Assembly: GCA_934096035.1 (NCBI GenBank)
Contig: CAKOKX010000001.1
Span: forward strand, 694,989-758,988
Direction: 5' to 3'
Source: an uncultured Bacilli bacterium
GTDB taxonomy: Bacteria; Bacillota_I; Bacilli_A; RF39; UBA660
DNA: 64,000 nucleotides
Part shown: in pieces, positions 5,186 to 42,486 of the stretch
How positions within the stretch are numbered: position 1 is the first letter of the stretch
Layout: every line of letters begins with the position of its first letter
Program-made: the position numbers and the translations under genes
The notes under the pieces: model-generated
What the model saw: only the letters and a program-made list of their open reading frames with translations
Databases searched by the model: none
Told to the model about the DNA's origin: nothing

Positions 5186-5558
5186 TATATTTTTAGATTG
5201 CTTAATATATAATTTTACACCTTATAAATCATTTTTCTTTCTATCAAGTATTAATAATAAAAGTATAGTTTATAATATTGCAACAGGTTTATTTATAGAT
5301 ATATTTATTATTCATACATATTTTCTTAATACTATATTTATCATTTTGTTTTATATATTACATAAAGTAATTAAAATAAATTATTATAATATTATAAATT
5401 ATTATTTATTTAATATAACAACAATATTTATCTATTATATTATATTTTCATATCTTTATAATTTTAAAAATATCTTTTTTAATATGTTTATAATTAATAC
5501 CATATTTATTCTTTTATGTTATATGAAAGATACCAAAAGCATAAAATTGTATAGGTGA
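5178..5558 (+). CDS. mreD: rod shape-determining protein MreD-like polytopic membrane protein
   Basis: 126 aa and very hydrophobic. It overlaps the mreC stop, which is the canonical mreCD arrangement. Confidence 0.45.
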   Translation: MINIFLDCLIYNFTPYKSFFFLSSINNKSIVYNIATGLFIDIFIIHTYFLNTIFIILFYILHKVIKINYYNIINYYLFNITTIFIYYIIFSYLYNFKNIFFNMFIINTIFILLCYMKDTKSIKLYR

Positions 5559-5562
5559 GATA

Positions 5563-6159
5563 ATGGACGAATATATTAGTAATGCTAAAAAAAGAAGAAA
5601 TAAAAAAAGTTTTAATTTTAATAATAAAAGTCTTAAAAGTTTTATATCTAAATTTTTACTTGCTATAATATTTTTCTTATCTAGTATAATATTTACTAAT
5701 ATAAATGATAAAAATCTTTTGTTATATAAAGAATATGTCTTAACAGAAAGCCTACCTTTTACTAAAATAAAAGGATGGTATGAAGAATTATTTGGAGAAG
5801 TATTACCTAAGGATGATAATAATAAAATGGTTATAAAAGGTCATTTAGTTTATAAAAATATTGAAAATTATAAAGATGGGGAAGTTCTAACTTTAACCGC
5901 TAATACTCTAATAAATAGTTTTCAAAGTGGGATAGTAGTTTACTGCGGAGAAAAAGATGATTATGGAAATACAGTCATTATCCAAGGTGTAGATGGGGTA
6001 GATATTTGGTATGGAAATTTAACTAATGTTTCAGTTAAATTATATGATTACGTTGAAAAAGATAAATTAATTGGTGAAACAAATAGCGATTTACTTTATT
6101 TAGTTATCAAGAAAGATAATAATTATCTAAAATATGAAGATTATCAAGCTGGATTATAG
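5563..6159 (+). CDS. degenerate M23/LytM-domain protein (SpoIVFA-like position)
   Basis: An N-terminal transmembrane helix and a C-terminal region GIVVYCGEKDDYGNTVIIQGVDGVDIWYGNL that resembles an M23 peptidase fold without obvious catalytic histidines. It lies directly upstream of the M50 protease, as spoIVFA does in B. subtilis. Confidence 0.45.
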   Translation: MDEYISNAKKRRNKKSFNFNNKSLKSFISKFLLAIIFFLSSIIFTNINDKNLLLYKEYVLTESLPFTKIKGWYEELFGEVLPKDDNNKMVIKGHLVYKNIENYKDGEVLTLTANTLINSFQSGIVVYCGEKDDYGNTVIIQGVDGVDIWYGNLTNVSVKLYDYVEKDKLIGETNSDLLYLVIKKDNNYLKYEDYQAGL

Positions 6160-6880
6160 TATAGTTTTTATTCTTTTAACCTTACTTTTATGTGGATATA
6201 TAAGAATAGGCTTAATTATACTATTTATTGTTTTATTTCATGAACTTGGACATGTTTTAGTATGTTTATTTTTTAAATATAAAATAATTAATGTCACCAT
6301 ATATCCTTTCGGTGGTATAACTAAAATAGAAAAAGATATAAATACTAATCCGAGTAAAGAATTAATTCTCGCTTTTGCAGGAATTTTTATGCAAGTAATA
6401 TTAATATTTATAGTAAAAATATTTTCTATTCATGATTATGATCTGTTTTTAAAATATAATTATAGTATAATGTTATTTAATTTGCTTCCAATTATTCCTT
6501 TAGATGGAAGCATTATAGTAAATAGCATTTTAAATAAGTTTTTTTCTTTTAAAAAATCATATATCTTATACATTATTATAAGTATTATATCTGTTTTTTT
6601 ATATGTATTAATTAATTATAAATATAGTGTAAATAATTATTTAATAATAGGTATCTTTTTATATAAAATATATTATTCAATTAAAGAATATAAATACATT
6701 TATAATAGATTTTTACTTGAAAGGTATTTAAAAAAATATAAATTCAATAACATAAGTACTAAAAAGGGAAATTTAGATATATTAAAACTAGATACATATC
6801 AATATTTTAAAGAAGATGAAAAAATAGTAAGTGAGGCTAAAAAACTAGAAGAAAGGTTTGACAAATACAAGTATTTTTGA
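6134..6880 (+). CDS. M50 family site-2 metalloprotease (SpoIVFB-like)
   Basis: A HELGH zinc-binding motif inside a transmembrane helix; multiple transmembrane segments; an LDG motif. Its position before rplU matches the B. subtilis order spoIVFB-rplU. Confidence 0.65.
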   Translation: MKIIKLDYSIVFILLTLLLCGYIRIGLIILFIVLFHELGHVLVCLFFKYKIINVTIYPFGGITKIEKDINTNPSKELILAFAGIFMQVILIFIVKIFSIHDYDLFLKYNYSIMLFNLLPIIPLDGSIIVNSILNKFFSFKKSYILYIIISIISVFLYVLINYKYSVNNYLIIGIFLYKIYYSIKEYKYIYNRFLLERYLKKYKFNNISTKKGNLDILKLDTYQYFKEDEKIVSEAKKLEERFDKYKYF

Positions 6881-8885: not shown

Positions 8886-9524
8886 TTATTCATCAAATGT
8901 AGCATCTACATAGTAGATTGGTCTACCTTCTTTTTCATATTGTTTTTCAAAATCAGTCATGATATTACTAATTTGTCTTTCATCATGATGTAAGTCTAGA
9001 CTAACTTTATTAAAAGTGTACCAATATTGTGATAAAGTTTCTAATGAATAAGCAAATAAACCTTTGTTGTCGGTTTTTAAAATAATGTGTTTGTTCTTCT
9101 TGAAAATCTTGTCATAAAGCTTTAAATAACTTATGTGCGTAAATCTATTTTTCTCATCAATTCCTTTTGGCCATGGTTCTGAAAAAGTCAAATATATGGT
9201 AGATATTTCTTTTCCAAAAATTTTATCAATATTTCTAGCATCATCATTAATAAGTTTTAAATTAGTTATTTTTTCTGATTTTAATTTTTCAGTAGCCATC
9301 ACCATTTGCGATGGATAAAGTTCAAGTCCAATAAAGTTTACATTTGGATATTTTTTTGCCATGTTTATGATAAAATCTCCACGTCCCATTCCAAGTTCTA
9401 AAGAAATAGGATTCTTGTTACCAAATAAGTCATGCCATTTATTTTTATATTTATAAGGATCTTTAACAAAAAATTTACTTTCTGCAATTATTTTATCAGC
9501 GTTTTTAATTTTATTATATTCCAT
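8886..9524 (-). CDS. trmB: tRNA (guanine-N7)-methyltransferase
   Basis: 212 aa. An SAM-binding motif LELGMGRGDF. The length and motifs are typical of TrmB. Confidence 0.8.
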   Translation of the reverse strand: MEYNKIKNADKIIAESKFFVKDPYKYKNKWHDLFGNKNPISLELGMGRGDFIINMAKKYPNVNFIGLELYPSQMVMATEKLKSEKITNLKLINDDARNIDKIFGKEISTIYLTFSEPWPKGIDEKNRFTHISYLKLYDKIFKKNKHIILKTDNKGLFAYSLETLSQYWYTFNKVSLDLHHDERQISNIMTDFEKQYEKEGRPIYYVDATFDE

Positions 9525-19887: not shown

Positions 19888-19926
19888 TCCCCTACTTAAG
19901 ATAAGTCATAAGATAGGGGACTTTTC
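19888..19926 (+). terminator. rho-independent terminator
   Basis: AAGTCCCCTA...TAGGGGACTTTT. Confidence 0.55.
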
Positions 19927-20646
19927 ATATATACATACACGCATATATCCTTATTTATAATAAATATAAGGTTATAAACGCGCAATATTAACCTTATTAA
20001 AATATAAATAAGGTTATAAAATACTTTTTTAAATTTTAAAACTTATTATAAAAAATAATTTTGTTTTTGTTATAAAAATAATTTTATGTTATATTTATGA
20101 TTAATTATATTTATTGAGTAAAGAAAAGTTATTTAAAAAGATAAGAACGATTTGAAAAATATAATATAATTTTAATTAAAAATCAAGAATTTAATATACA
20201 AAATAATATATATTATGTTAACTTAGTCATTGAAAAAATACAAATATAATTTGTTGATTTTGTATCGCTATTTGTATTTATATTAATAACATTAATCTTT
20301 TCTTTCTTTGAAAATTTATTCATAAGTAACTTAACAATATTTATAAACAATTTAATCATAATAAACATCAAATTATAAATATTTATCTTTTATATATGAA
20401 ATATCTTTCCCAATCTGTTCTAATATTTTTCTTTGTTTCTTAAGTTCATTATATGTTAAAATTGGCAAAATAGATTTTATAATTGTAACTAATATTATTA
20501 TTACTCCGATTATAATTATATAATTTGCAATTACTTCATAATCAATATTTAGTCCCATAAAAACACATCCTTACTTTTTGTAGTTTAACACAGACAAGAT
20601 TAAATGTAAATACTCTCCCCCACTCTTTTTGATGTGTCAACACATT

Positions 20647-21405
20647 TTAACTAATCATCACATTTACTATTACTAGGATTGTTCCTATAATAAGACCTAA
20701 ATAAATCCACTTATTTTCTTTATATTTTAATGCTCTAGGAAGCATTTCTTGTATTGACAAAGTAATCATTAGCCCTGCTACTACAATTAAGACTATACTT
20801 ATCATGAGTTCTGATACAAATCTTTTTAAAAATACATAAGCTAGGATAGCACCTAAAGGTTCAGATAATCCAGATATTAGTGTAGATTTTATAGCCTTTT
20901 TTCTACTACCAGTTGCATAATATATTGGCACTGCAATAGAAATTCCTTCAGGAATATTATGAAGCATAATAGCAATTGATAATCTTAAACCTAGATCAAT
21001 ACTATGATAACTACTTAAAAATGTTGCAATACCTTCCGGTAAATTATGAAGAATTAAAACAATCATGTTTAGAATACCAAGTTTATATAAATCAATACCT
21101 TTGCTTTCTTTTTCTACTAAGGAACTTAGATATGTAATAATTATATAACTAATAATAAATGCTATTAATAAAATTATTAAAGTTTTTCCAATTCCATAGA
21201 AGTTAACTATTTCAAAAAATGATGTTGGAATTAAATCTAAAATACTTATAGAAATCATTATTGCAATAGAAAAAGAAAGACAAAAACTTATAAATTTACT
21301 TAAGTTCTTCTCTTTAATTTTAAAAAATATTGGAATAGCTCCGATTAACGTTGATAGACCAGCTAATGTTGATAATATAAGTGGAATTATAATCTTTTGC
21401 ATCAT
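20647..21405 (-). CDS. zupT: ZIP-family zinc transporter ZupT
   Basis: HNLPEGIATF and HNIPEGISIAVP motifs; eight transmembrane helices. Confidence 0.8.
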   Translation of the reverse strand: MMQKIIIPLILSTLAGLSTLIGAIPIFFKIKEKNLSKFISFCLSFSIAIMISISILDLIPTSFFEIVNFYGIGKTLIILLIAFIISYIIITYLSSLVEKESKGIDLYKLGILNMIVLILHNLPEGIATFLSSYHSIDLGLRLSIAIMLHNIPEGISIAVPIYYATGSRKKAIKSTLISGLSEPLGAILAYVFLKRFVSELMISIVLIVVAGLMITLSIQEMLPRALKYKENKWIYLGLIIGTILVIVNVMIS

Positions 21406-26780: not shown

Positions 26781-27013
26781 AATTTCCTCCAAAAGAAAAC
26801 CCAAAGGCGCCATGCATTGATAAAAACCCGCTCTCGCGAGGTGGGCATCACATGAATTACTTTAGGATCCTTACTCACTTAATGGTTAAGTCTTCTACAC
26901 CATAATTCAATTAGATTCCCTTATTATCTATCTAGTCGGTTTTATATTGACATAGACATTTACCCTTTAGGTATCTTAATTATATCAAAATAATTTTTTT
27001 AAAACAAGTCATA

Positions 27014-29951: not shown

Positions 29952-29986
29952 TCAAAATAAGACAAGCAATTAATCTAGCTTGTCTT
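29952..29986 (-). terminator. terminator of the gatCAB array; it overlaps the last codons of gatB
   Basis: On the minus strand: AAGACAAGC-loop-GCTTGTCTT followed by ATTTTG. Confidence 0.45.
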
Positions 29987-31406
29987 TTAGTATTTTTTTA
30001 GTTAAGTTTGGATTTGCTTTACCTCTAGTTTCTTTCATTACTTGACCCACAAAGTAATCAAAAAGATTGGTTTTTCCATTTTTATATGCTTCAACTTGAC
30101 TTGTATTATTATTTAATATATTATCTATAATAATTTCAAGTTCATTACTATCAGATAATTGAGCATTATCTTTACTAATAAAGTTTTTAGGTTCTTTTTG
30201 TTCTTCTAAAGACTTATTAAATATTTCTTTAGCTTGTTTAGAAGAAATATTTCCATTTTCTAACTCAGTAATAATTTGATTTAATAAATTAGGTTTTAAG
30301 TAAAATTCATTTAAACTAACAGCTTCTTTATTTAAGTATGCAATTATATTTACAATTAAATAATTAGCAGCAATTTTTTTATCCATTCCTAAACTTACAC
30401 ATTCTTCAAAATAATCAGCATATTCCTTAGTTTTAATAATTATATTAGCGTCATATTCACTTAATCCATACTCATTTATATATTTAATCTTTCTTTCATT
30501 AGGAAGAACTGGAATACATTTTTTTATTTCTTCAACCCAGTTTTGATCTATTTTATATTTAGGAATATTAGGTTCCACAAAATATTTATAATCTATTGCA
30601 TCAGCCTTAGTACGCATTCTTTTCGTAGTACCACTTTCTTCATCCCATCTTCTAGTTTCTTGTACTACTTCATCATATCTTCCCTTATCTTTTAATTTAC
30701 TTTGTCTTTCTATTTCATATTTAATAGTTTCATAAACATTACCAAATGAGTTAACATTTTTAACTTCAACTTTTGTACCTAACTCCTTAGAATCTACATC
30801 CATTATAGATACATTAACATCGCATCTTATTTGACCTTTTTTAGTATCAGCATCAGATATATCGGCATATTGATATATTCTTCTCATCTCTTCCAAGAAG
30901 GCAACTGCTTCTTCAGGTGATTCAATACAAGGTTCAGTAACAAGTTCAAGTAATGGAACACCTGCTCTATTATAGTTAATCAATGATACATCTGTAAAAT
31001 GGTCCATTGAAGCAGAATCTTCTTCTAAATGAATATCATGAATAAGGATTTCTTTTGTTGTTCCATTACAATCAATTTTTATCGAACCATTTACCCCAAC
31101 TGGATCATGCATTTGGGTAATTTGATATCCTTTAGGTAAATCTGGATAATAATAATTCTTTCGATCAAAGTACATATATTCTGGTAACTTACAATTAAGT
31201 ATTAAAGCAGCCATAATTGCTTTTCTAATAGCTTCTTTATTTACCATAGGAAGAGTTCCTGGAAATCCCATATCTACAGGTCTAACATTTATATTAGGTA
31301 TTTCACTAAAATCATTTTTTGCACTTGAAAATACTTTCGTATTACAATTCATTTCACAATGCATTTCAAGACCAATTACTGCTTTATATTTATTCATTAT
31401 TATCAC
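29970..31406 (-). CDS. gatB: Asp-tRNA(Asn)/Glu-tRNA(Gln) amidotransferase subunit B
   Basis: A conserved GatB N-terminus (KAVIGLEMH...), a YqeY-like C-terminal domain; 478 aa. Confidence 0.9.
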   Translation of the reverse strand: MIIMNKYKAVIGLEMHCEMNCNTKVFSSAKNDFSEIPNINVRPVDMGFPGTLPMVNKEAIRKAIMAALILNCKLPEYMYFDRKNYYYPDLPKGYQITQMHDPVGVNGSIKIDCNGTTKEILIHDIHLEEDSASMDHFTDVSLINYNRAGVPLLELVTEPCIESPEEAVAFLEEMRRIYQYADISDADTKKGQIRCDVNVSIMDVDSKELGTKVEVKNVNSFGNVYETIKYEIERQSKLKDKGRYDEVVQETRRWDEESGTTKRMRTKADAIDYKYFVEPNIPKYKIDQNWVEEIKKCIPVLPNERKIKYINEYGLSEYDANIIIKTKEYADYFEECVSLGMDKKIAANYLIVNIIAYLNKEAVSLNEFYLKPNLLNQIITELENGNISSKQAKEIFNKSLEEQKEPKNFISKDNAQLSDSNELEIIIDNILNNNTSQVEAYKNGKTNLFDYFVGQVMKETRGKANPNLTKKILKDKLD

Positions 31407-32847
31407 CTACTACCATATCTTTATAATTCATTTCAGATTCTAATGCATATGCTAAATTTAAAACAGTTTGATCATCATAACAATTACCTGTAATATTAAC
31501 TCCAACAGGAAGGCCATTTATAAGCCCATTTGGTATTGTAATAGATGGAAATGCTCCGAAGTTACCAATTTGTAAATGATTTTCTAAAATAGATAATTCA
31601 TCATCAGAAACTTGTTCCATAACATCTTTAATTAAAGGTGCTACTCCACTACCAACAGGCAAAATAAATGCATCATATTCTTTAAATAAATCTTTAAATT
31701 TATTTACAATTAATCTTCTTACTCTACAAGCATTTAAGAAATATCTTTCTTGATTTTCTTTTTGCAATACATATGAACCTATTACAAATCTTCTTTTAAT
31801 AAGGGGTGAAAATCCTTTAGTTCTATAATCTTTAATCATGTCCATGATATTATCTCCAGTTCCTCTAGGGCCAAAAGATATTCCTGTTAAATTAGACATG
31901 TTGCTAGTAGCTTCAGCACAAGAAATACAAACATAAACACTAGGAATTGTACTAAGTAGAGTTTTATCTATAGATATTTCATCTACAATAACACCAATAT
32001 TTCTTAGTTTTTCTATTGTTTCATTAAAGTTGTTTAAATGTAATTTTAATTCCTCACTAGCATTCGGATAATTACTAATATCAGTAATTTCTCTTATATA
32101 AAATAATTTCTTTTCATTCACATCTTTATTCAAATTTTCAAATAAATTTATATTGCTTGAATCCCAAGAAGTTTGGTCATTTTCATCTATACCTTTCATA
32201 GCATCAACTACTAATGCCGCATCACTAACACTTCTTGTTAAAACTCCACAAGTATCTAAACTAGATGCAAATGGAAATAAACCATATCTTGAAATCATTC
32301 CATAAGTAGGTTTATAGCCTACAATTCCACAGTATCCTGCAGGTTTACGAATAGAATCTCCAGTATCACTACCTAAAGCATAAGGATAAACACCTGCCGC
32401 AACACTACATGCAGAACCTGCTGAAGAACCACCACAAATTCTTGTATCGTCCCATGGGTTCTTGATAATTCCTGTGTGAGCAGTTAACCCAGTACCACCC
32501 ATTCCAAATTCATCTAAAGCAGTTTTAGCAACTCCAACAGCACCATTATTTTTCAAATTAACAATCGCAGTTGCATCAAAGAATGGCACATAATCTTTTA
32601 ATGTATTACTAGAACCTGTAGATAAAATATCTTTCGTAGAATAATTATCTTTAATACCATAAGGAATCCCGCTTAAATAGTTATTTTCATCAAATTCCCC
32701 ATTTGCATCATCAATTATAGTTACAAACGCATTACATTTTTTTTGTAATTCATAAGCATTACTAATTGAGTCTTTAATTAATTCCGCACTTGTAACTTCT
32801 TTATTTTTTAACATTTCATGAAATTCAATAATTCCTGGCTTTTTCAT
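31390..32847 (-). CDS. gatA: Glu-tRNA(Gln) amidotransferase subunit A (amidase)
   Basis: An amidase signature (GGSSGGSA region) and an S-cisS-K triad context; 485 aa. Confidence 0.9.
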   Translation of the reverse strand: MKKPGIIEFHEMLKNKEVTSAELIKDSISNAYELQKKCNAFVTIIDDANGEFDENNYLSGIPYGIKDNYSTKDILSTGSSNTLKDYVPFFDATAIVNLKNNGAVGVAKTALDEFGMGGTGLTAHTGIIKNPWDDTRICGGSSAGSACSVAAGVYPYALGSDTGDSIRKPAGYCGIVGYKPTYGMISRYGLFPFASSLDTCGVLTRSVSDAALVVDAMKGIDENDQTSWDSSNINLFENLNKDVNEKKLFYIREITDISNYPNASEELKLHLNNFNETIEKLRNIGVIVDEISIDKTLLSTIPSVYVCISCAEATSNMSNLTGISFGPRGTGDNIMDMIKDYRTKGFSPLIKRRFVIGSYVLQKENQERYFLNACRVRRLIVNKFKDLFKEYDAFILPVGSGVAPLIKDVMEQVSDDELSILENHLQIGNFGAFPSITIPNGLINGLPVGVNITGNCYDDQTVLNLAYALESEMNYKDMVVGDNNE

Positions 32848-33143
32848 TATCCCACCACCTTTGGAACACTAACAAAATCATCTTCTACAGAATCACAATT
32901 TTGTAATAAATTTTCAACTGGAATACTTTCTTTTGCAACATCTTCTCTTAATATAAAAGAAAAATCATCTAAAGTATGTGTCATAGGTTCAACTTTTTCT
33001 ATATCAGGCATATTTGCAATTTTTTCCATTGATTTTTCAATAACATCAAACTCTTTTAAAACCATATTATTTTCATCATCAGTTAAACCAATAAGCAATT
33101 TACCAGCATAATCATCAATCATTTCTTTTGTAAATTTATTCAA
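32847..33143 (-). CDS. gatC: Glu-tRNA(Gln) amidotransferase subunit C
   Basis: 98 aa, overlapping the gatA start. A GatC-like acidic helix. Confidence 0.75.
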   Translation of the reverse strand: MNKFTKEMIDDYAGKLLIGLTDDENNMVLKEFDVIEKSMEKIANMPDIEKVEPMTHTLDDFSFILREDVAKESIPVENLLQNCDSVEDDFVSVPKVVG

Positions 33144-33150
33144 AAGTACT

Positions 33151-33693
33151 TCACTCCTCTATATTATTTAAAATTTCATCTAATCTATTATGAAAATCAT
33201 TAATTGTACCATTGTTGAAAATATAATAATCAGCATAAGCTATTGGTCCCGCCTTAGCAATATTTTCAATTTCTGAAATATCTCTTTTTATAGCATCAGA
33301 TTCACTAAAAGGTCTTTCAATTCTCTTAGAAAGTCTATCATATCTAATTTTTTTATCTGCAACAACTGCAATCGTAGTCATATTAAATTCATTATTTAAA
33401 ATAACTAATTCATCCCACGAATAAAGTCCATCAAGAACAACATCATTATTTAAAGATAATTCTTTAATAGTTGGAAGTAAAACTTTAGCATAAGCTCCCA
33501 TCCCAAGTTCACTACGAAGTTTTTCTCTCATCATTTTTTCATTATCCGGAGTTATATCTAGACCATTTTCTTTTAATTTATCCATTGTAACTCCACCGAA
33601 ATAAACCCTTTTATAACCCAATCCAATCAAATACTCACTAGCAACAGATTTACCACTACCGCACATTCCAACAATTGCAATAATTTTTCCCAT
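33151..33693 (-). CDS. P-loop nucleoside/nucleotide kinase-like protein (dephospho-CoA kinase-like fold)
   Basis: Walker A motif GMCGSGKS at the N-terminus and a small LID-like region; 180 aa. It is translationally coupled between asnS and gatC. Confidence 0.45.
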   Translation of the reverse strand: MGKIIAIVGMCGSGKSVASEYLIGLGYKRVYFGGVTMDKLKENGLDITPDNEKMMREKLRSELGMGAYAKVLLPTIKELSLNNDVVLDGLYSWDELVILNNEFNMTTIAVVADKKIRYDRLSKRIERPFSESDAIKRDISEIENIAKAGPIAYADYYIFNNGTINDFHNRLDEILNNIEE

Positions 33694-33702
33694 AAAAACC
33701 CT

Positions 33703-35079
33703 CTAAAATTCACATGAACCAGGTGTTCTTGGATAAGGAATAACATCACGAATATTTTCAATGCCTGTTAGATACATAATAAGTCTTTCAAATCCCATTC
33801 CAAATCCTGAATGAATGCATCCACCATATCTTCTTAGATTTACATACCATTCAATGCTTTCTTCTTCTACACCTAATTCTTTCATTCTAGCCAGTAAAAC
33901 ATCTAATTTTTCTTCTCTTTGTGATCCACCAATAAGTTCACCAGCTCCTGGTACTTCTAAATCAACACCAGCAACAGTTTTTCCATCTTCATTTAATTTC
34001 ATGTAATATGCTTTAATTCCTGCTGGCCAATTTTTAATAAATACTGGAACACTAAAATGATTTGTTAACCATCTTTCATGTTCTTTAGCAATATCTTCTT
34101 CATAAGATGGTTCAAATTCCCATTTTTCACCACTATTTTTTAATAAATCAATTGCTTCTTTATGATCAATTCTTATAAAAGTACTATTTGCTACATTTTC
34201 TAATTTTGCTTTTAATCCTTTTTCTACAAATTTATCAAAGAAATCAATTTCATCTGGACAATTTTCTAAAACATATTTAACAATATATTTTAGGAAATCT
34301 TCTTCAATATCCATTAAATCATTGATATCTGCAAAAGCTATTTCAGGTTCAATCATCCAGAATTCATTTGCATGAGTCTTAGTATTTGAATTTTCTGTTC
34401 TAAAAGTTGGCCCAAAAGTATAAATCTTACTAAATGCTAAAGCAAATGTTTCGCCATGAAGTTGTCCTGAACCAGTAATAAATGTCTTTTTATTAAATAA
34501 ATCTTTACTAAAGTCTACTTTCCCATCTTTTTTTGGTAGATTATCAAAATCAAATGTAGATACTTTAAACATTTGATCACTACCTTCACAATCTGCAGTT
34601 GTTAAAAGTGGTGTATGAACATAAATATAATTTCTATCTTGGAAATATTTATGAATGGCATAAGCTGCTACACTTCTTACTCTAAATACTGCTTGAAAAG
34701 TGTTAGCTCTAGGTCTTAAATATGCAATACTTCTTAAAAATTCCATACTATGTTTTTTAGGTTGTAATGGATAATCTTCAGAGCAATCTCCCAACAATTT
34801 AATACTTTTAGCTTTTAATTCATAATCTTGTCCACTGCCTTCAGATTTAACAAAATTCCCGATAACCTCAATACTTGAACCATCATGTAATTTTACAAGA
34901 TTACTAAAATCTTCTAATTCATTTGTATATACTACTTGTAAGTGTTTAAAACTAGTTCCATCTGAAAAATCAATAAAACCAAATTCCTTTTGAGGTCTAT
35001 GATTTCTAATCCAACCACTTATCTTAATTTCCTTATCTAAATATTCTTCACTACTCTTTTGTAATTCTTTAATTGTCAT
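33703..35079 (-). CDS. asnS: asparaginyl-tRNA synthetase
   Basis: A class IIb aaRS with an N-terminal OB fold, motif 2 FRTENS..THANEF, and motif 3 GFGMGFERL; 458 aa. Confidence 0.9.
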   Translation of the reverse strand: MTIKELQKSSEEYLDKEIKISGWIRNHRPQKEFGFIDFSDGTSFKHLQVVYTNELEDFSNLVKLHDGSSIEVIGNFVKSEGSGQDYELKAKSIKLLGDCSEDYPLQPKKHSMEFLRSIAYLRPRANTFQAVFRVRSVAAYAIHKYFQDRNYIYVHTPLLTTADCEGSDQMFKVSTFDFDNLPKKDGKVDFSKDLFNKKTFITGSGQLHGETFALAFSKIYTFGPTFRTENSNTKTHANEFWMIEPEIAFADINDLMDIEEDFLKYIVKYVLENCPDEIDFFDKFVEKGLKAKLENVANSTFIRIDHKEAIDLLKNSGEKWEFEPSYEEDIAKEHERWLTNHFSVPVFIKNWPAGIKAYYMKLNEDGKTVAGVDLEVPGAGELIGGSQREEKLDVLLARMKELGVEEESIEWYVNLRRYGGCIHSGFGMGFERLIMYLTGIENIRDVIPYPRTPGSCEF

Positions 35080-36127
35080 TTTTCTTCCTTCTTTCTCTTT
35101 TTAAATGAGTATTTAAACTCTTAATGAAATCATTTTTATTATAAGCATCTTTAAAATATATTTTTAAATTTATGCTAACTAAAATATATTGTTTCATAAG
35201 TTCTTCAAATTCAAATTCACTACCACGCAAAGCTAAATTAATAGTTCTTTCAATATTAATACCTAATACATGCATTGCCATTATTGCATCAAGAAAATCT
35301 TCAGAATGATTTGTAATAAATGCTGTAACTATTTTATATTCTTCTTGTTCACTAGTAAATTCACTAACATTACTCCACCACTCTAATAATAAATGTCCTG
35401 TTTTACTAATATTCTCTTTAGAATTTAACCATTCATTTACAGTCTTTTCTTCTTCATAGCTATAAAAATTATTTTCAATATCACTATGATCTTTATCAAT
35501 ATTGCTTTCAATACTTAATATAAAATCATTTCTTAATGCTTGATATTTATCTTTATATAATAATTTTAAATTTCTAGAAATAACTAATATTTTATCTACT
35601 TCTTTTTCCAAACAATTTTTCTTTATTGCTTCATCTATTATTTCTTTTATATTTTTTTCTTGCCAATTGCATATAAATATTGCTTCAAAAACATCATCTG
35701 GTCTTTTGCAAATTAAATTGCTTAATATTTGATATTCATTTGAATCTTTAGAATATGTATTAGAATTTGCTAATAACTTTAATAATAAATTTTCTAAATA
35801 ACTATGCTTAACATGTTCATTTTCATGTTTATTTTTATTTACATTTTCACTTAAGAACTTTTCTTCTAATAAATTACCATATCTAGTAGAAAAATTATCA
35901 GCTTTATTCTTTAAATAATTCATATTATCTACAAATCTATTGCCTATAGCATAATTTATAATAACTTTACTATTATACCCTAAAGAATATAAATAAGAAG
36001 TAATTTTTAAAGCATCATCAAGTTTTTCTTTTACAAACCTTGTAATTTTACACTTTGCTTTATAAGTATATACTTCTTCACTACTATAAAGTATCCAATT
36101 TAATACTATTTCTTCAATATAACCCAT
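35069..36127 (-). CDS. hypothetical protein (352 aa); it overlaps the asnS start
   Basis: A long ORF. I see a weak resemblance of the N-terminal region to DnaD/DnaB-type helical domains but cannot confirm it. Confidence 0.45.
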   Translation of the reverse strand: MGYIEEIVLNWILYSSEEVYTYKAKCKITRFVKEKLDDALKITSYLYSLGYNSKVIINYAIGNRFVDNMNYLKNKADNFSTRYGNLLEEKFLSENVNKNKHENEHVKHSYLENLLLKLLANSNTYSKDSNEYQILSNLICKRPDDVFEAIFICNWQEKNIKEIIDEAIKKNCLEKEVDKILVISRNLKLLYKDKYQALRNDFILSIESNIDKDHSDIENNFYSYEEEKTVNEWLNSKENISKTGHLLLEWWSNVSEFTSEQEEYKIVTAFITNHSEDFLDAIMAMHVLGINIERTINLALRGSEFEFEELMKQYILVSINLKIYFKDAYNKNDFIKSLNTHLKRERRKKNDN

Positions 36128-36136
36128 AGTTCCTCC

Positions 36137-36862
36137 TTATATATTACCTAAGATATATTCAAGCACATCAGCTTCATCTATTTTTATTACTTCTTCAGTA
36201 TAATTATCTTTAATACTAATTATACCTTTAATTAAATTTTCATCATCTAACAATATATTAAATTTACTATTAACTTTTTCATTTAACACAACATTAATAT
36301 TATTCATTCTTAAATCCTGTGCTATTTTTAAAGCATGATAACTTTCTTCTTCACTAATACCAATTATACTTACATCAATATTTACATCTAAAGCATTATC
36401 CCTAATAATGTTCATTACTTCATTAATTAATGTCTCAATATTAATTTTAATATTAATTTCATTATTATTTTTACATCCAACACCCATAATTACATCTTCA
36501 TAAATATAATTCCAAGTTAATTCATTACTTTCAATATTATTTACACAATATATTTCCAACACTTCTAATAAGTTTAATATTTCATCATTACAACTAATAC
36601 TTAATTCTATATCCTCTAATCCAAATCTTTTAAATAAATTGTATCCTAAACTTATTGCTTCAACATCACTAACTAAATCATCCGAATTTTTTACATGAAT
36701 TTCAATATCTTCTAAATTATTAGTATAATATTTATTACTATCTGACTTTCCTATAACAAATACATAATTATAATTATCCATATGTTGATTCAAAATTTCT
36801 ATTAAATAATTATACAGCCTTGTTTTCTTTCCACTCAATGTCATATTTATCAGTCCTTTCAA
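36137..36862 (-). CDS. stand-alone fragment resembling the C-terminal part of HisRS, including its anticodon-binding domain
   Basis: DVSIIGISEEESYHALKIAQDLR...INVVLNE...KFNILLDDENLIKGIISIKD aligns with the HisRS anticodon-binding domain pattern D-YIV-G-ea---al-la-LR-aGi---d---k--kqfk-A----a-ailGe-E. The N-terminal catalytic core is absent. Confidence 0.5.
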   Translation of the reverse strand: MKGLINMTLSGKKTRLYNYLIEILNQHMDNYNYVFVIGKSDSNKYYTNNLEDIEIHVKNSDDLVSDVEAISLGYNLFKRFGLEDIELSISCNDEILNLLEVLEIYCVNNIESNELTWNYIYEDVIMGVGCKNNNEINIKINIETLINEVMNIIRDNALDVNIDVSIIGISEEESYHALKIAQDLRMNNINVVLNEKVNSKFNILLDDENLIKGIISIKDNYTEEVIKIDEADVLEYILGNI

Positions 36863-36883
36863 TTACTCTTTATTTTACCATAT

Positions 36884-36910
36884 TTAAAAAGGAAATAGAA
36901 TACTATTTCC
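36884..36910 (-). terminator. terminator separating the aspS unit from the HisRS-like gene
   Basis: GGAAATA-GAATAC-TATTTCC with A and T runs on either side. Confidence 0.45.
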
Positions 36911-36954
36911 CAAATTTTTACAAAACTTTATTGGTAAACAAAAAGAAAGCATCA

Positions 36955-37677
36955 TTACTTTCCTTCATTTGTTTTTAGCCAAAGCATAAAATCATCTAAT
37001 AAATCATATTTAGTATCTTTATAATTGTCATACACATATTTTAAAATATCAACTACATTAGCATCTAAAACATCCAATTTTACAACTCTGATATCCTTAG
37101 TCATAACATATCTTCTTCTAAATGTACTCATATTCCACGATTCCATTACTTTACTATCAAAATCACTATAATCACCATATATTTTTTTCATAATTAAATA
37201 ATCTGTAGAATCTTTATCTAAATTATATTTTACTTTTACCTCATCATATTCATCTTTATTATAATCACATGCATTAGAAACATTAATAACTAAGTATGTA
37301 CATTCTAACATATCGTGATAATATTTAGTAAATACAGTATTTTTCTTATATTCGTCATTTTTATACTCATTACTTAAAAATTCTTTAGTCCACTCATACA
37401 TTTTAGTTTTAAATACATCATCATCATATTTTTTTCTTAAGTTTTTTTCTCCATATGTATTATTCATCATCCATTTAAGATAGACATCATGATATTTTAA
37501 CATACCATTTACACCCGTCGAAAAATAAAGTCTTCTAGAACTATCAACCATCGCCAAACTAGCACTAATCTCTGGAGTTAAGTTATTTTTTTCAATACGA
37601 GCTAAATCAATTGTTTTCGTAAAATGAAAATATGCTCTATCAAAATCTAAATCACACAAATTTACCCTTCTTAACAT
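36955..37677 (-). CDS. hypothetical protein (240 aa), translationally coupled to aspS
   Basis: The start lies 8 nt after the aspS stop, with a weak AGGA ribosome-binding site inside the aspS 3' end. The next terminator is downstream of this ORF. Confidence 0.5.
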   Translation of the reverse strand: MLRRVNLCDLDFDRAYFHFTKTIDLARIEKNNLTPEISASLAMVDSSRRLYFSTGVNGMLKYHDVYLKWMMNNTYGEKNLRKKYDDDVFKTKMYEWTKEFLSNEYKNDEYKKNTVFTKYYHDMLECTYLVINVSNACDYNKDEYDEVKVKYNLDKDSTDYLIMKKIYGDYSDFDSKVMESWNMSTFRRRYVMTKDIRVVKLDVLDANVVDILKYVYDNYKDTKYDLLDDFMLWLKTNEGK

Positions 37678-37684
37678 AGTAATC

Positions 37685-39424
37685 CTACAAATCTAATTTT
37701 ATATGTGCTTCTTTTAATTGTTCAGGGAAAGCTTCTCCAGGGCATCCCATCATAGCATCTGCACCATTTGCTCCAATTGGGAATGGTACAATCTCCCTAA
37801 TATTTTCTTCATCTTTTAAAAGCATTATAATTCTATCAATACCAGGGGCCATACCAGCATGTGGAGGTGCTCCATATTTAAATGCTTCATATAAACTTGG
37901 AAATTTGCTTCTTACAACATCCTCATTATAACCAACAAGTTCAAAGGCTTTTTTAAGAATTTCCGGAGAATGGTTACGAACTCCACCAGAAGCCATTTCA
38001 TATCCATTACAAACAAAATCATATTGGAATGCTTCAATTTCAAATGGATTTTTATTATTTAGAGCATTTAAGCCACCTTTTGGCATACTAAATGGATTGT
38101 GTGAAAATTCAATTGCTCCAGTATCTTCATTTTCTTCATAGAAAGGAAAATCATTTATAATACAAAATTCATATCTATTTTTATCAATTAAATCAAGTTC
38201 ATTACCTAATTTAGTTCTTAAGTTACCCATAATTCTTGCACATCTTTTTTTATCTGCAACAATAAATAAAGCATCATTTTCATGTAAATTCATTCTTTTA
38301 ATTAATTCATTTTTAACTTCATCACTCATAAATTTAGTTAAAGATGATTTTAATTCCATACCAGTTTTTACTTGAATATAACCTAAATTACCATGAAGTC
38401 CTTTTACATATTCTTCCATAGATTTATACCACGAATTAGATTTTTCAATATTTTCTACTTTAATACATCTAACAACTGTATCTTTAAATGGAGCAAAATC
38501 ACTTTTATTCATTATATCAGATATATCTTCAATTATTAATGGATTTCTTAAATCTGGTTTATCGCTACCATATTTTAATATCGCATCTTTAAATTTAATT
38601 CTTCTAAATGGAGCTGGACTTACATACTTATCACTAAATGTACTAAATACATCATAAAATACTTTTTCACCAACTTTATATACATCTTCATCAGTTGCAA
38701 AACTCATTTCAAAGTCTAATTGATAAAATTCCCCATATAATCTATCACTTCTTGGATCTTCATCTCTAAAGCAAGGTGCTATTTGGAAATACTTATTAAA
38801 TCCAGAAACCATTAATAATTGTTTAAAGATTTGTGGTGATTGAGGTAGCGCATAAAACTTACCTGCGAATTTTCTTGAAGGAATTATAAAGTCTCTGGCT
38901 CCTTCTGGACTAGTGGCAGTAATAATTGGAGTTTGTACTTCCAAAAAGTCCATTTCTTTCATAGTTTTTCTTAAGAAATCCATAATCTTACTTCTAAATA
39001 TAATATTATCATGAACTTCTTTATTTCTTAAATCTAAATAACGATATTTAAGTCTTGTATCTTCATTAGATTCTTTAGACTTATTAATTTCAAATGGTAA
39101 AACATTTACACAATCTCCAAGAACTTCAAGTGTTTCAAGTCTAACTTCAATTTCTCCAGTTTTCATGTTCTTGTTAACCATATCAGGTGTTCTTGCTTCA
39201 ACTACTCCAGTAATTGTAACTGTTGCTTCACGATGTAAATTCTTATATCTTTCTACATCTTCAGATATTAATTGCACAATCCCGGTTTCATCTCTTAGCG
39301 TAATAAATACTAAATTACCAAGATTTCTAATACTATTAACCCATCCTGCTAACCTAATATTCTTACCAATATATGAAGAATCTACTTCTCCACAATAAAT
39401 ATCTCTGTACATATTTTCTTTCAT
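37685..39424 (-). CDS. aspS: aspartyl-tRNA synthetase
   Basis: A class IIb aaRS with an OB-fold N-terminus, motif 2 FRDE, a GAD insertion domain, and motif 3 GGVRNHS... then GMAPGIDRI; 579 aa. Confidence 0.9.
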   Translation of the reverse strand: MKENMYRDIYCGEVDSSYIGKNIRLAGWVNSIRNLGNLVFITLRDETGIVQLISEDVERYKNLHREATVTITGVVEARTPDMVNKNMKTGEIEVRLETLEVLGDCVNVLPFEINKSKESNEDTRLKYRYLDLRNKEVHDNIIFRSKIMDFLRKTMKEMDFLEVQTPIITATSPEGARDFIIPSRKFAGKFYALPQSPQIFKQLLMVSGFNKYFQIAPCFRDEDPRSDRLYGEFYQLDFEMSFATDEDVYKVGEKVFYDVFSTFSDKYVSPAPFRRIKFKDAILKYGSDKPDLRNPLIIEDISDIMNKSDFAPFKDTVVRCIKVENIEKSNSWYKSMEEYVKGLHGNLGYIQVKTGMELKSSLTKFMSDEVKNELIKRMNLHENDALFIVADKKRCARIMGNLRTKLGNELDLIDKNRYEFCIINDFPFYEENEDTGAIEFSHNPFSMPKGGLNALNNKNPFEIEAFQYDFVCNGYEMASGGVRNHSPEILKKAFELVGYNEDVVRSKFPSLYEAFKYGAPPHAGMAPGIDRIIMLLKDEENIREIVPFPIGANGADAMMGCPGEAFPEQLKEAHIKLDL

Positions 39425-39655
39425 ATTCTTTACTCCTCCTTAAATATAAAAAATTCTATAAATTAATTTAGCTTAAGGACGAGTATAACCCGCGGTGCCA
39501 CCTTAATTCATAGAATTCTATGCATCTTAATTTGCTATATCGGGCATTTCCGTTTACTTTCAAGGTACTATCTTCACTAACTTAAGTTACTAGTTTTCAC
39601 CATCCACTAGTTCTCTATAAACTATCAGTTACCTACTGGTTTACCAAATAAATCA
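39425..39655 (-). promoter_or_regulatory. T-box riboswitch leader of aspS
   Basis: On the minus strand, AATTAAGGTGGCACCGCGGG (plus-strand 39489..39508) matches the T-box consensus AANNNGGGTGGNACCGCGG. AGAGA and AGTA K-turn-like motifs lie upstream. A GAAGAUA candidate specifier (plus-strand 39569..39575) contains the Asp codon GAU followed by a purine. Confidence 0.75.
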
Positions 39656-39662
39656 TAAGTAG

Positions 39663-39691
39663 AATATACTACTTTTTTCATCATTTGTCTA
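39663..39691 (-). promoter_or_regulatory. candidate promoter for the T-box leader
   Basis: On the minus strand: TAGACA, a 17-nt spacer, then TATATT. The -35 element overlaps the stop codon of the upstream J-domain gene. Confidence 0.35.
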
Positions 39692-41161
39692 GATATTTTC
39701 TTTATTTTTCTCTCTTTTTAATATATTATTTTCATTATTTTTAAACTTTATTTCTTTTTTGCTTTTTAAGAAACTATTATAAAATCTATCATATAACGCT
39801 TGCTTATCTTTATATGTTCTACTAGCGGTATCCGTTGCATGAGTATTTAACGAATGAAATTCATCAAAATTCACTAGTAATATTTTATCATTTTCTGTTA
39901 AAAGAATATAACAACCAGTATTTTCATAATAATATAATGCTGTAGTTATAAATTTTGTATTTAAATATTGAATATAACCTTTGTCTCCTAAGAAATTCAA
40001 ATCTTTTAAAACATCTTTAAAATTATTATATTTTTTATAAAACTCTTCTTTAGTCATAAAAACTTCTTCTGCCATACCAGATGGGAACTTCTTTAAAAAG
40101 GATACAAGATTTCCTACTTCACCCTTTTTCAAAACAATCTCAGTTTCTTCATTATCAGAAAAATTGGCTGTAATATATAATTCATATTCACTTTCTTTAA
40201 GTTCATCACTATTTGTAAAAGTTAAATTACCAAGAATACCCAAAACTTTTTCATCGATTCTACCCAATTGAATGGCTTTTAATTTAGTCATAGCTCTATT
40301 AAATACATTCATAGCGATATCAATATCTTCTGTATCTGTTGGTTTTAACTTCATCATTCTTTTATTAAAGTTGTTCATTATTGCTTTATAAGTATCCCAC
40401 ATTTTATTATTTAATTCTTCATCTTTTAAAATTCTTACCTTTATTTCAGTTTGTAATCTATATATACCATCCTCTATTGTAATTTTTTCATCAACAATTT
40501 CTTTAAGTATTATTTCTTTTAAATCAGCAATTTCTTCTAATATTTTACTATTAACTTTTTTATCCTTAAACATGGATAATATAATTTTATCTAAATTTTT
40601 ATCAACTTTTTCATATTTTGTTCTAATTTTATTTACTTCATTTACATAAGCATCAAAAGAACAATTATCATTAATTGGTTCAAACTTGCTTATCCAAAAT
40701 TCAGGTACATTTTTTAATATTTCATTTTTATAACTTTTAAATAAATCTTTTATACTACCTATAGCAACATTATATTTAAAATCTACATGTAGTTTTTCTT
40801 TAGAGAAAGAAAATGCTTTAACAACATCCTCAATTGCCTTTGCATATTTGTATTCAGGTGTATCTGGTAAATAAACTGTTTTACTAACATAAAAATCTAA
40901 TTTCCGTCTTAAATTATTATAATACATTAAGAATTCATCATAATTTTCTTGTTTATTTTGCGTTCTACGACTTTTTGTTACTTCATATGAACCACCTTTT
41001 TTTAACACTTCATATGCATAATTAACTTTCTTCATCATCTCTTCATCACCATTTAAATCTGGATGGTATTTTTTAGATAATTCCAAGTATCTTTTCTTTA
41101 ATTCTTCTTTTGTAAAATTACTTGTAAATCCAAATAACTTTAATGCTTCACTATAATTCAC
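39689..41161 (-). CDS. J-domain protein (490 aa) with a large uncharacterised C-terminal region
   Basis: The first 60 residues read like a DnaJ J-domain (LSKKYHPDLNGDEEMMKKVNYAYEVL, with the HPD tripeptide). I recognise nothing in the remainder. Confidence 0.6.
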   Translation of the reverse strand: MNYSEALKLFGFTSNFTKEELKKRYLELSKKYHPDLNGDEEMMKKVNYAYEVLKKGGSYEVTKSRRTQNKQENYDEFLMYYNNLRRKLDFYVSKTVYLPDTPEYKYAKAIEDVVKAFSFSKEKLHVDFKYNVAIGSIKDLFKSYKNEILKNVPEFWISKFEPINDNCSFDAYVNEVNKIRTKYEKVDKNLDKIILSMFKDKKVNSKILEEIADLKEIILKEIVDEKITIEDGIYRLQTEIKVRILKDEELNNKMWDTYKAIMNNFNKRMMKLKPTDTEDIDIAMNVFNRAMTKLKAIQLGRIDEKVLGILGNLTFTNSDELKESEYELYITANFSDNEETEIVLKKGEVGNLVSFLKKFPSGMAEEVFMTKEEFYKKYNNFKDVLKDLNFLGDKGYIQYLNTKFITTALYYYENTGCYILLTENDKILLVNFDEFHSLNTHATDTASRTYKDKQALYDRFYNSFLKSKKEIKFKNNENNILKREKNKENI

Positions 41162-41175
41162 GATTTATCCTCCAT

Positions 41176-42486
41176 TTAAATTTTTTCTCTTTTTAAAACA
41201 ACATTTTTATTACTTTTATTAATTGCTCTTTTAGCATCAAGATAATCTACAGCTTTATTAATTATACTTATTTCACTAGAATTTTGCAAATCTTCATCTA
41301 AAGGCATTCCAATCATACTAGCAAATTCTAATAAATATTTTTTATCAATTTTTCCTGAAGTTAACAAATCATATAAACTAATATAATTTCTAATAAATGT
41401 TGATCTATGAAATTCAAATGTTTCTTCTCCAAATGGTGTAAAACCTGTACAATAAAGTTTACTATTAGCATAACCTGTTTTAAGTAAGATATTTTCACCA
41501 TCATATTTTTCTTTTATTTTAACAAAAACATTTTTCGTTTTAGATTGAACTATGTCATATATTTCTTCAATATTTTCAAACTTAATACTTGTAAGAGTTC
41601 TTAAAATATCTCTACTTTCTTGACCTTTTAATACTCTTTTTAATATTTCCTTTATCATTTCAAGCATTTTATTGGCAACATCTATTTTACTTAAATCATT
41701 TTTACCTAATGAATTTATTCTAGTATTATAATTTTCTTTAATTAAAGCTAAACTAGAAAAAACGTCACTTTTTCTTGATTGGAATTTTTCTAAAGATAAA
41801 TTCATACCAAAAACTAATGAATCTAAATATGCATAACGTCCTTCCCAAAGAGCTAGATTAATATTGTTTAGAAAAATTATTAATGAATCTGGTGCACAAT
41901 CTCCGATTATATTTTCTAATTTTAAAACTGTTTCACAATATACTTGATGTTTATTTATCATAGTAGATAATTCTTTTAACATTCTTCTTATTTCATCTAT
42001 ATTTTTATTAAAATCTATAGAACTATCAATTTCAATTAATTTACGTTTTATTTCATCAATAAAATTAATTATTACTAAATTTTTTTCTTTTCCTTCAGTT
42101 AATTCTTGTATTCTTTTTTCTGTTTTAAATACTAAACGTCTATTTCTAACATAAACTTTTATTATTTCATGCACTTGATCAACAAATGTATCAAAATTAC
42201 AATCAAAATTTAAATCAATATGTGCCGTTATTTTATGGCTTGCAAATATTTCATTAGCATATTCTTTGAACTTTATTTTTAAATTATTTATTAAAATGCT
42301 ATATTCTTCCTCTAATTTTTTTTGATCTTCATAAAAATCAAAACTATCAATTAATCTATTAATAGATGTAGCATATTTTTCTTCTAGGGAATCACTTAAA
42401 TATTTTCTACTACCCCTTATTTTAATTAGTTTGTTTACTAAACATTCGTAATATTTATATAACGTAAATCTTTCATTATCACTCAT
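41176..42486 (-). CDS. hypothetical protein (436 aa)
   Basis: A 14-nt gap separates it from the neighbouring gene in the same operon. I see no motifs. Confidence 0.5.
   Translation of the reverse strand: MSDNERFTLYKYYECLVNKLIKIRGSRKYLSDSLEEKYATSINRLIDSFDFYEDQKKLEEEYSILINNLKIKFKEYANEIFASHKITAHIDLNFDCNFDTFVDQVHEIIKVYVRNRRLVFKTEKRIQELTEGKEKNLVIINFIDEIKRKLIEIDSSIDFNKNIDEIRRMLKELSTMINKHQVYCETVLKLENIIGDCAPDSLIIFLNNINLALWEGRYAYLDSLVFGMNLSLEKFQSRKSDVFSSLALIKENYNTRINSLGKNDLSKIDVANKMLEMIKEILKRVLKGQESRDILRTLTSIKFENIEEIYDIVQSKTKNVFVKIKEKYDGENILLKTGYANSKLYCTGFTPFGEETFEFHRSTFIRNYISLYDLLTSGKIDKKYLLEFASMIGMPLDEDLQNSSEISIINKAVDYLDAKRAINKSNKNVVLKREKI

Follow-up and report, generated by a model that had tools for sequence, protein, structure and literature searches.

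We analysed a 64,000-nucleotide window (contig CAKOKX010000001.1, positions 694,989 to 758,988 of the forward strand) from an uncultured Bacilli bacterium of the UBA660 group, and found on its minus strand a shortened relative of the histidyl-tRNA synthetase (HisRS) gene hisS. By sequence and position, this gene, here called mini-hisS (36137..36844, 235 amino acids (aa)), descends from the bacterial-type hisS that the lineage originally had, of which it is the positional orthologue, and it sits in the ancestral hisS slot. Its product, mini-HisRS, reads as a whole-length HisRS with internal deletions, not as a C-terminal fragment. The minus-strand order of the locus is T-box, aspS, ORF240, two hairpins, mini-hisS, ORF352, asnS, an AAA_18 kinase-like gene, gatC, gatA and gatB. 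Our best explanation, which we hold as a whole to be likely, divides this series into two separate transcription units: a T-box leader specific for Asp (GAU), aspS, ORF240 and the two hairpins; and a promoter, mini-hisS, ORF352 in some lineages, asnS, the kinase-like gene and gatCAB. The G+C content of the window is ~25%, and the nearest kin of the window by mini-hisS are uncultured human-gut “Tenericutes/Bacilli” metagenome-assembled genomes, e.g., UMGS686 and Firmicutes bacterium CAG:460. Identical or near-identical proteins lie on contigs of up to 0.95–1.2 Mb, indicating that these genomes are small (~1 Mb).

The start of mini-hisS was placed at the ATG at 36844, because relatives of 231–235 aa begin at the equivalent ATG behind a conserved Shine–Dalgarno sequence (SD), AAAGGA; among the matches listed, this holds for 120 of 120 full-coverage database relatives. 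The 241 aa given by the initial annotation therefore become 235. Searched as a single sequence, the protein matched the Pfam family HGTP_anticodon below its gathering threshold (E 0.003; 18.1 bits vs 21), gave a best E value of 1.4 against the PDB with phmmer, and scored 22.8 bits with the NCBI hisS model TIGR00442, whose cut-off is 286.75. A profile of 17 mini-hisS family members, in turn, placed the HisRS structures 1wu7 and 1qe0 at the top of the PDB matches (E 0.002–0.003) with collinear segments, and hhalign aligned the mini family to ten full-length sister HisRS proteins with 99.9% probability (E 2.6e-35) over template columns 16–430. The same slot in sister gut Bacilli holds a normal bacterial-type hisS of 417–426 aa. 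In the related loci that we compared (numbered with the prefix L), this full-length gene stands directly before asnS in L010, L013 and L017 and before aspS-asnS in L018–L020, and its product shares with mini-HisRS the C-terminus ...DE(A/S)E(I/V)(V/I)DY(L/I)LGNI. The initial annotation had recognised the relationship to HisRS and the ancestral hisS neighbourhood, and both are confirmed by these comparisons. Its alignment to the C-terminal third of HisRS, with the catalytic core missing, holds in part: catalysis appears to be lost, but the alignment runs over the whole length and the N-terminal 150 residues retain a skeleton of the core.

Relative to sister HisRS, mini-hisS has lost 180 aa through eight internal deletions, all of them in frame. 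Numbered according to the full-length HisRS of L013, these remove residues 1–8 (N-terminal stretch, KPKGT), 39–52 (end of motif 1), 59–91 (including LRPEGTAG, the LRPEGT histidine loop), 98–122 (motif 2 loop with the ATP-binding arginine, YRYERPQAGRFR), 165–233 (the whole insertion domain), 255–261 (RGLDY, of the RGLDYY element), 287–297 (motif 3 loop), and 358–370 (a lysine-rich helix, LSLKAQFKQA, of the anticodon-binding domain (ABD)). Two flanking strands are all that is left of motif 2 (YERPQxGRxREFxQ), and the GGGGRY of motif 3 has become GVGCKN (reading G-V-G-C-K-N-N), with the arginine missing in all members of the mini family. Among positions invariant in sister HisRS, the mini family keeps 9 of 120 in the catalytic part and 16 of 27 in the ABD, the latter being 16 of the 21 that are still covered. 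What survives is the ABD together with the motif 1 helix and a class II sheet skeleton. Measured against what defines a functional HisRS, mini-HisRS falls short in motif 2, the histidine-binding elements, motif 3 and the TIGR00442 cut-off, and retains homology and a class IIa ABD. Because every catalytic element is lost, it is predicted to be unable to activate histidine or charge tRNA, and another enzyme would thus have to carry out histidylation.

Structure prediction with AlphaFold2 on the mini family alignment (pLDDT 89.5) yielded a structure that combines the motif 1 helix and a small antiparallel sheet with a C-terminal domain of the alpha/beta type. Foldseek comparison of this model with the PDB returned HisRS structures first (1qe0, 1htt, 2el9 and 1kmm; E 3e-13 to 1e-10; query TM-scores 0.70–0.75), and the alignments span 336–415 target columns, so that both HisRS domains are covered. 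Mini-HisRS is confidently predicted to fold as a pared-down HisRS.

A complete HisRS was found in one lineage that carries mini-hisS. In L009, a 36-kb contig carries both mini-hisS and, 4 kb upstream of it, a gene for a 431-aa HisRS (4892–6187). This enzyme belongs to the archaeal/eukaryotic type, has all motifs (LRYDLTVP, GRDREFTQCD, RGQDYY and GGGGRYD), scores 340.8 bits with TIGR00442 and 466 bits with PRK12420, and lies in the context ftsA-ftsZ-spoIIGA-sigE-hisS-dCMP deaminase-sortase-fba-mscS. Human gut assemblies abound in proteins 78–80% identical to it, encoded in the same context on contigs of 27% GC. With such a second HisRS present, the original hisS would have become dispensable for catalysis and could have been trimmed. 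BLASTP detected no meaningful similarity between the mini protein and the second HisRS, and descent of mini-hisS from this archaeal/eukaryotic-type enzyme was rejected for lack of collinear similarity. The second hisS is preceded by a gap of 260–600 nt with no match to a T-box or any other Rfam family (~9396–10001 in L030–L033; 4635–4892 in L009).

What might a HisRS without catalysis do? Within the best explanation, and with somewhat less than even confidence, we favor a protein that would still bind what the ABD bound in the ancestor, most likely the anticodon arm of tRNA-His, but would not charge it, since the invariant surface of the ancestral ABD is retained, including an acidic pair and a K/R residue. 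In the Thermus thermophilus HisRS–tRNA complex, the GUG anticodon is read by E386–E388, K397, K399 and Q404 (PMC4357726). This contact segment follows the helix that is deleted in mini-HisRS; members of the mini family still have a pair of acidic residues (D/E) at 201–202 and K/R212-D213-N214. The motif 1 helix and the sheet remnant could act as a dimerization scaffold. The stand-alone tRNA-binding module that the initial annotation offered as its other explanation is a possible reading.

Several observations weigh against this reading. The acidic pair and K/R212 correspond to the T. thermophilus contacts by motif position, not by an explicit alignment with that sequence, and the evidence that would point to tRNA binding is all of one kind, namely conservation. 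Mini-HisRS has a pI of 4.2–4.5 and a net charge of −17 to −27, about twice the charge density of full enzymes, and has lost the lysine-rich ABD helix, both of which speak against RNA binding. As for the enzyme proposed to have displaced the original HisRS, tblastn of the window and all loci for the second HisRS detected it in L009 only and not in the 64-kb window; among lineages with mini-hisS, the complete HisRS is established for L009.

Because mini-HisRS is so acidic and lacks the lysine-rich helix, a role unrelated to tRNA, as a scaffold or regulator that binds proteins, is about equally plausible, although on its own terms we would call it possible rather than likely. The retained dimer helix and an acidic ABD surface would then contact a partner, e.g., AsnRS, GatCAB, the AAA_18 kinase or the new HisRS, and conservation of the ABD would reflect that contact. 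Strong conservation of the motif 1 helix (R9, L10, Y11, N12, E16, N19, M22, N24 and Y25) is in line with this proposal, as is the invariant linkage, probably with translational coupling, to asnS-kinase-gatCAB. However, the conserved ABD positions are those conserved in the tRNA-charging ancestors, the partners named are all candidates, and a heterodimer with the second HisRS is unlikely given that the two proteins share no meaningful similarity.

The reading frame of mini-hisS is intact in the window, L001–L009, L014 and L047 while identity drops to 50%, and an intact ORF of 231–235 aa occurs in 138 database proteins and in at least 12 genomic lineages. By the Nei–Gojobori method, dN/dS of mini-hisS was 0.18 between the window and L001, 0.09 between L005 and L006, and 0.17–0.30 in other pairs with dS below ~0.8, as compared with 0.05–0.12 for asnS and 0.08–0.22 for the kinase gene; distant pairs lie near dS saturation and only close pairs give reliable ratios, which tempers this evidence. 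Invariant columns number 54 in the mini family and fall mostly in the N-terminal helix, the helix at 57–73 and the ABD. Judged from these substitution patterns, mini-hisS is kept by purifying selection and is not decaying, and its protein therefore does something. A decaying hisS pseudogene, persisting as a neutral relic after replacement by another HisRS, would account for the disappearance of all catalytic motifs, for a protein that evolves 2–4 times faster than AsnRS and for its going unrecognized by gene-family databases. This view, close to the decayed hisS-like paralogue first proposed for the ORF, is largely refuted and in our estimate very improbable: the dN/dS values and invariant columns argue otherwise, as do the absence of any stop codon or frameshift in 12 lineages, the constant length, the confident model and the conserved promoter and SD, and genomes of ~1 Mb would normally purge dead genes.

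Among known systems, mini-HisRS is closest to bacterial HisRS itself (TIGR00442; Staphylococcus aureus 1qe0, Escherichia coli 1htt/1kmm), of which it is a collinear descendant with the same slot, ABD fold and C-terminal motif; it differs in lacking motif 2, His A, His B, most of motif 3 and the insertion domain, and in its size (235 vs ~420 aa). HisZ, the regulatory subunit of ATP-phosphoribosyltransferase, is likewise a non-catalytic bacterial protein derived from HisRS. It keeps the catalytic-core fold with the histidine site and usually has no functional ABD. Mini-HisRS is the reverse, with a gutted core and a retained ABD, and shows neither a HisZ model match nor a his-operon context. That it is a HisZ-like subunit that binds and regulates a metabolic enzyme, as HisZ does with the ATP-phosphoribosyltransferase HisG, is accordingly very unlikely. 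The existence of HisZ as a known non-catalytic HisRS paralogue, a weak profile match to the HisZ structure 3od1 (E 0.44) and an acidic surface suited to protein–protein binding speak for such a role. On the other hand, no TIGR00443 or PRK12292-series match appeared at E ≤ 0.1, whereas both full HisRS controls cross-matched at 1e-45 to 1e-52; the histidine-binding core that HisZ keeps is deleted; neither hisG nor any other his gene is present in the 64-kb window or the 20-kb loci; and mini-hisS is a recent derivative of the housekeeping hisS, not of the HisZ clade.

A 2022 review lists HisZ as the only HisRS-like paralogue in bacteria (PMC9437257), and our literature search found no truncated bacterial HisRS of the mini-hisS type. 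In eukaryotes, the HisRS-like domain of the kinase GCN2 is described as having lost aminoacylation and as being used for sensing and binding (uncharged tRNA, the ribosomal P-stalk) (PMC11363354, PMC6421407). Mini-HisRS resembles this module in principle as a HisRS-derived pseudo-enzyme, but the GCN2 module is a full-size domain in a multidomain eukaryotic kinase, whereas mini-HisRS is free-standing, heavily shortened, bacterial and of independent origin. Human aminoacyl-tRNA synthetases (aaRSs) have catalytic-null splice variants, e.g., HisRS without its catalytic domain, which keep the ABD, are stable proteins and have non-translational roles. Those variants arise by alternative splicing of an active gene and lose the entire catalytic domain; mini-hisS, in contrast, is a dedicated gene with multiple genomic deletions that keeps the skeleton of the catalytic fold. 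Mini-HisRS is thus an aaRS-like pseudo-enzyme, a known kind of protein, which fails the defining tests of both HisRS and HisZ.

The remaining possibility, a split HisRS in which ORF240 and/or ORF352 supply the missing catalytic pieces in trans and the complex charges tRNA-His, is barely credible. It would draw on the uncharacterized ORFs that flank mini-hisS and on a resemblance in ORF240 (NLTPEISASLA vs LTLRPEGTAAV) that had been taken for a faint HisRS-core-like stretch, and a split hisS had been suggested on that basis; but hhalign against HisRS gave probabilities of 0.3% for the ORF240 family and 0.1% for ORF352, the ORF240 model has no class II or other aaRS-like fold, mini-hisS is not preceded by ORF240 in L009 and L047, ORF352 is absent from L008, L009 and L014, the deletions are loops and subdomains cut from inside one fold with no clean domain split, and L009 has a complete second HisRS. 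The same hhalign result and the non-aaRS model rule out ORF240 as a remnant of the HisRS core, and ORF352, with its 0.1% and no Pfam family, was rejected as a remnant of HisRS or AspRS.

ORF240 (36955..37677, minus strand) encodes an uncharacterized conserved protein with no relation to HisRS and with no family in Pfam, NCBIfam, PADLOC or PHROG. PADLOC and PHROG gave no match for ORF352 or mini-hisS either, and a defence-system or phage origin of the three genes was set aside. ORF240 is under purifying selection according to dN/dS analysis, and an exhaustive profile search with it collected 242 clusters at 50% identity, which makes it a real, wider family. The family motifs are (F/L)HFT..NL.SI..GL.P.IG.N with an invariant His, K.FFS.G, D.DE.K and ME.WNMHT; the wider family shows an invariant H18 in FHFT, F52 in FFS.G and, ahead of an invariant WN(182), an acidic residue. 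At the first motif, the wider profile matched E. coli DarT1 (8baq; E 0.016 over 32 residues) and the RNA 2′-phosphotransferase Tpt1 (E ~2), while Foldseek of the ORF240 model against the PDB returned nothing. DarT (DUF4433) and Tpt1/KptA belong, as nucleic-acid-directed enzymes, to the ADP-ribosyltransferase (ART) superfamily and have in common with ORF240 the N-terminal motif FHFT..NL.SI..GL with its invariant His; ORF240 differs from them in a large helical insertion and in a housekeeping rather than a toxin–antitoxin context. Distant homologues are found in varied housekeeping contexts, one overlapping rlmH, and the domain fusions of long homologues are uninformative but for one with a GNAT domain. 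Membership of ORF240 in the ART superfamily is a lead only, on which we are evenly divided.

The gene arrangement supports cotranscription of ORF240 with aspS behind an Asp T-box. The leader of aspS (39472..39653, minus strand) contains the T-box sequence AAGGUGGCACCGCG and scored 101.5 bits with the Rfam covariance model RF00230 (gathering threshold 93). Its specifier loop is GUGAA-GAU-A, in which GAU is an Asp codon followed by A. The fold of 39415–39520 (z = −4.2) has a long helix and then a U-run, reaching to ~39445 and matching a transcription-terminating T-box. A translational, SD-sequestering T-box was considered, since by eye 10 of 11 positions of the 3′ antiterminator strand could pair with the SD region, and was dropped because the minimum free energy fold is a conventional long terminator with a U-run. 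The aspS gene (37685..39424, minus strand) encodes a 579-aa AspRS (Pfam tRNA-synt_2, 1e-101, plus OB and GAD domains) and ends at 37685; ORF240 starts at 37677, behind an AGGA that overlaps the aspS stop codon. A scan of 32800–39800 detected no terminator between the two genes, its sole terminator-like site being at 36911–36890, downstream of ORF240. RNA folding revealed a second hairpin, the first terminator-like element in the direction of transcription, which spans the ORF240 stop codon and is followed by a U-run (36941..36966, minus strand; also in L001, L004 and L006). The pair aspS-ORF240 with a T-box is kept in the window, L001–L006, L014 and L046, and the same T-box was detected upstream of aspS in L001 and L014. 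From this gene anatomy, ORF240 expression should track tRNA-Asp charging. The initial annotation had described this arrangement, with the ribosome-binding site embedded in aspS and a terminator after ORF240 but none before it, and our results agree except in one detail: the adjacency stands, and the gap is 7 nt instead of 8.

The mini-hisS unit has signals of its own. A stretch of ~70 nt before the ATG hardly varies among 11 lineages and comprises a palindrome, GGAAATAG-TATT-CTATTTCC, a T-run, an extended −10 element (TGnTAAAAT) and ATTGAAAGGACTGAT. In the window, the palindrome and five T residues form a terminator-like hairpin at 36886..36910 that overlaps the −35 region of mini-hisS, and the extended −10 promoter (TGG-TAAAAT, 36872–36880) leads into a conserved 5′ untranslated region with the SD AAAGGA (36845..36880; all minus strand). 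The palindrome is unique in the window, where 0.03 matches would be expected by chance; it is identical in L001–L005, L007–L009 and L014 and has two mismatches in L006. In L008 and L009, the palindrome, TGnTAAAAT and SD are kept despite a different upstream gene, which assigns the element to mini-hisS. Its probable role is that of a terminator-plus-promoter of this gene; the view of it as nothing more than the terminator of aspS-ORF240 was rejected, since it accompanies mini-hisS also behind other upstream genes. The 20-nt perfect palindrome GGAAATAGTATTCTATTTCC, the T-run and the extended −10 (36872–36910, and the equivalent site in L001–L009 and L014) are essentially invariant across lineages whose adjacent protein is as little as 50% identical. 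Because conservation of both arms and the loop (20 of 20) goes beyond the needs of a terminator, the palindrome may be an operator.

Similar signals precede full-length hisS genes. The same design of terminator plus TGTGnTAAAAT is found in L010 and L011. A T-box stands before full-length hisS in L012 and L015–L020 (that of L019, at 8920–9102, scores 86.7, just under the gathering threshold of 93); in L010, L011 and L013 the hisS T-box is lost, with a terminator and an extended −10 promoter in its place, as in the mini-hisS clade.

Downstream, ORF352 (35069..36127) begins 9 nt after mini-hisS and overlaps the start of asnS (33703..35079, AsnRS of 458 aa) by 11 nt; both are on the minus strand, and asnS lies downstream of mini-hisS in every case. 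Where ORF352 is absent, asnS follows mini-hisS after 16–20 nt (L009 and L014) or a gap of ~200 nt (L008). Given this close succession, the layout suggests that mini-hisS is cotranscribed with asnS-kinase-gatCAB and not with the T-box unit; read-through from the latter into mini-hisS could occur, which would count against a strict separation. ORF352 encodes a fast-evolving helical repeat protein, 31–57% identical across lineages, in which a helical motif (..D..AI......G.N...IIN.AL) occurs three times; the gene is present in some lineages only and lies outside the core unit. The AAA_18 kinase-like gene (33151–33693, minus strand), PRK08356-like, is kept between asnS and gatC in all lineages, and is followed by gatC (32847–33143, minus strand), gatA and gatB (29970–32847). 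The operon of some relatives contains additional AspRS-type genes. One, situated between the kinase gene and gatC, encodes a second bacterial AspRS with 39% identity (L005 13687–15387, L006 12237–13937 and L007 3923–5623); the other is a 438-aa archaeal-type AspRS/AsnRS-like gene (L013 4587–5903 and L015 10459–11685), with its own T-box in L013. Their presence points to more than one round of aaRS gene reshuffling here.

Elsewhere in the window, a 6S RNA gene lies at 26794–26976 (Rfam RF00013, 55.9 bits) and is present in L001 too. Upstream of the T-box, 39689–42486 holds two paralogous genes, encoding a 490-aa DnaJ-domain protein and a 436-aa protein with a region of ~100 residues in common; additional copies occur at L002 1193–7068 and L003 592–6231. 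At ~19900–20650, genes turn from the plus to the minus strand and the GC skew changes sign (cumulative skew maximum), which looks like converging replication and a possible terminus region.

Taken to its furthest, our analysis would picture a free-standing, dead HisRS that reads tRNA-His or its charging state and regulates or organizes asnS-kinase-gatCAB, having been retained because the second HisRS could not take over this task, next to an ORF240 that is an NAD-dependent ART-superfamily enzyme acting on tRNA or RNA in response to tRNA-Asp charging. As a joint proposal, this is speculative and rather improbable.

Non-catalytic relatives of aaRSs (HisZ, GCN2, SLIMP and human catalytic nulls) are a recognized source of new functions. 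Annotation pipelines leave mini-hisS unnamed or could mis-call it, and aaRS inventories of reduced genomes could be misled. The 235-aa mini-HisRS is experimentally tractable and offers access to the role of a HisRS ABD freed from catalysis. Mini-hisS represents a different route to a non-catalytic relative: with a second HisRS present, the old gene was neither lost nor left intact, and was cut down to the fold skeleton and the ABD. It is selected for in gut genomes of ~1 Mb that are otherwise shedding genes.

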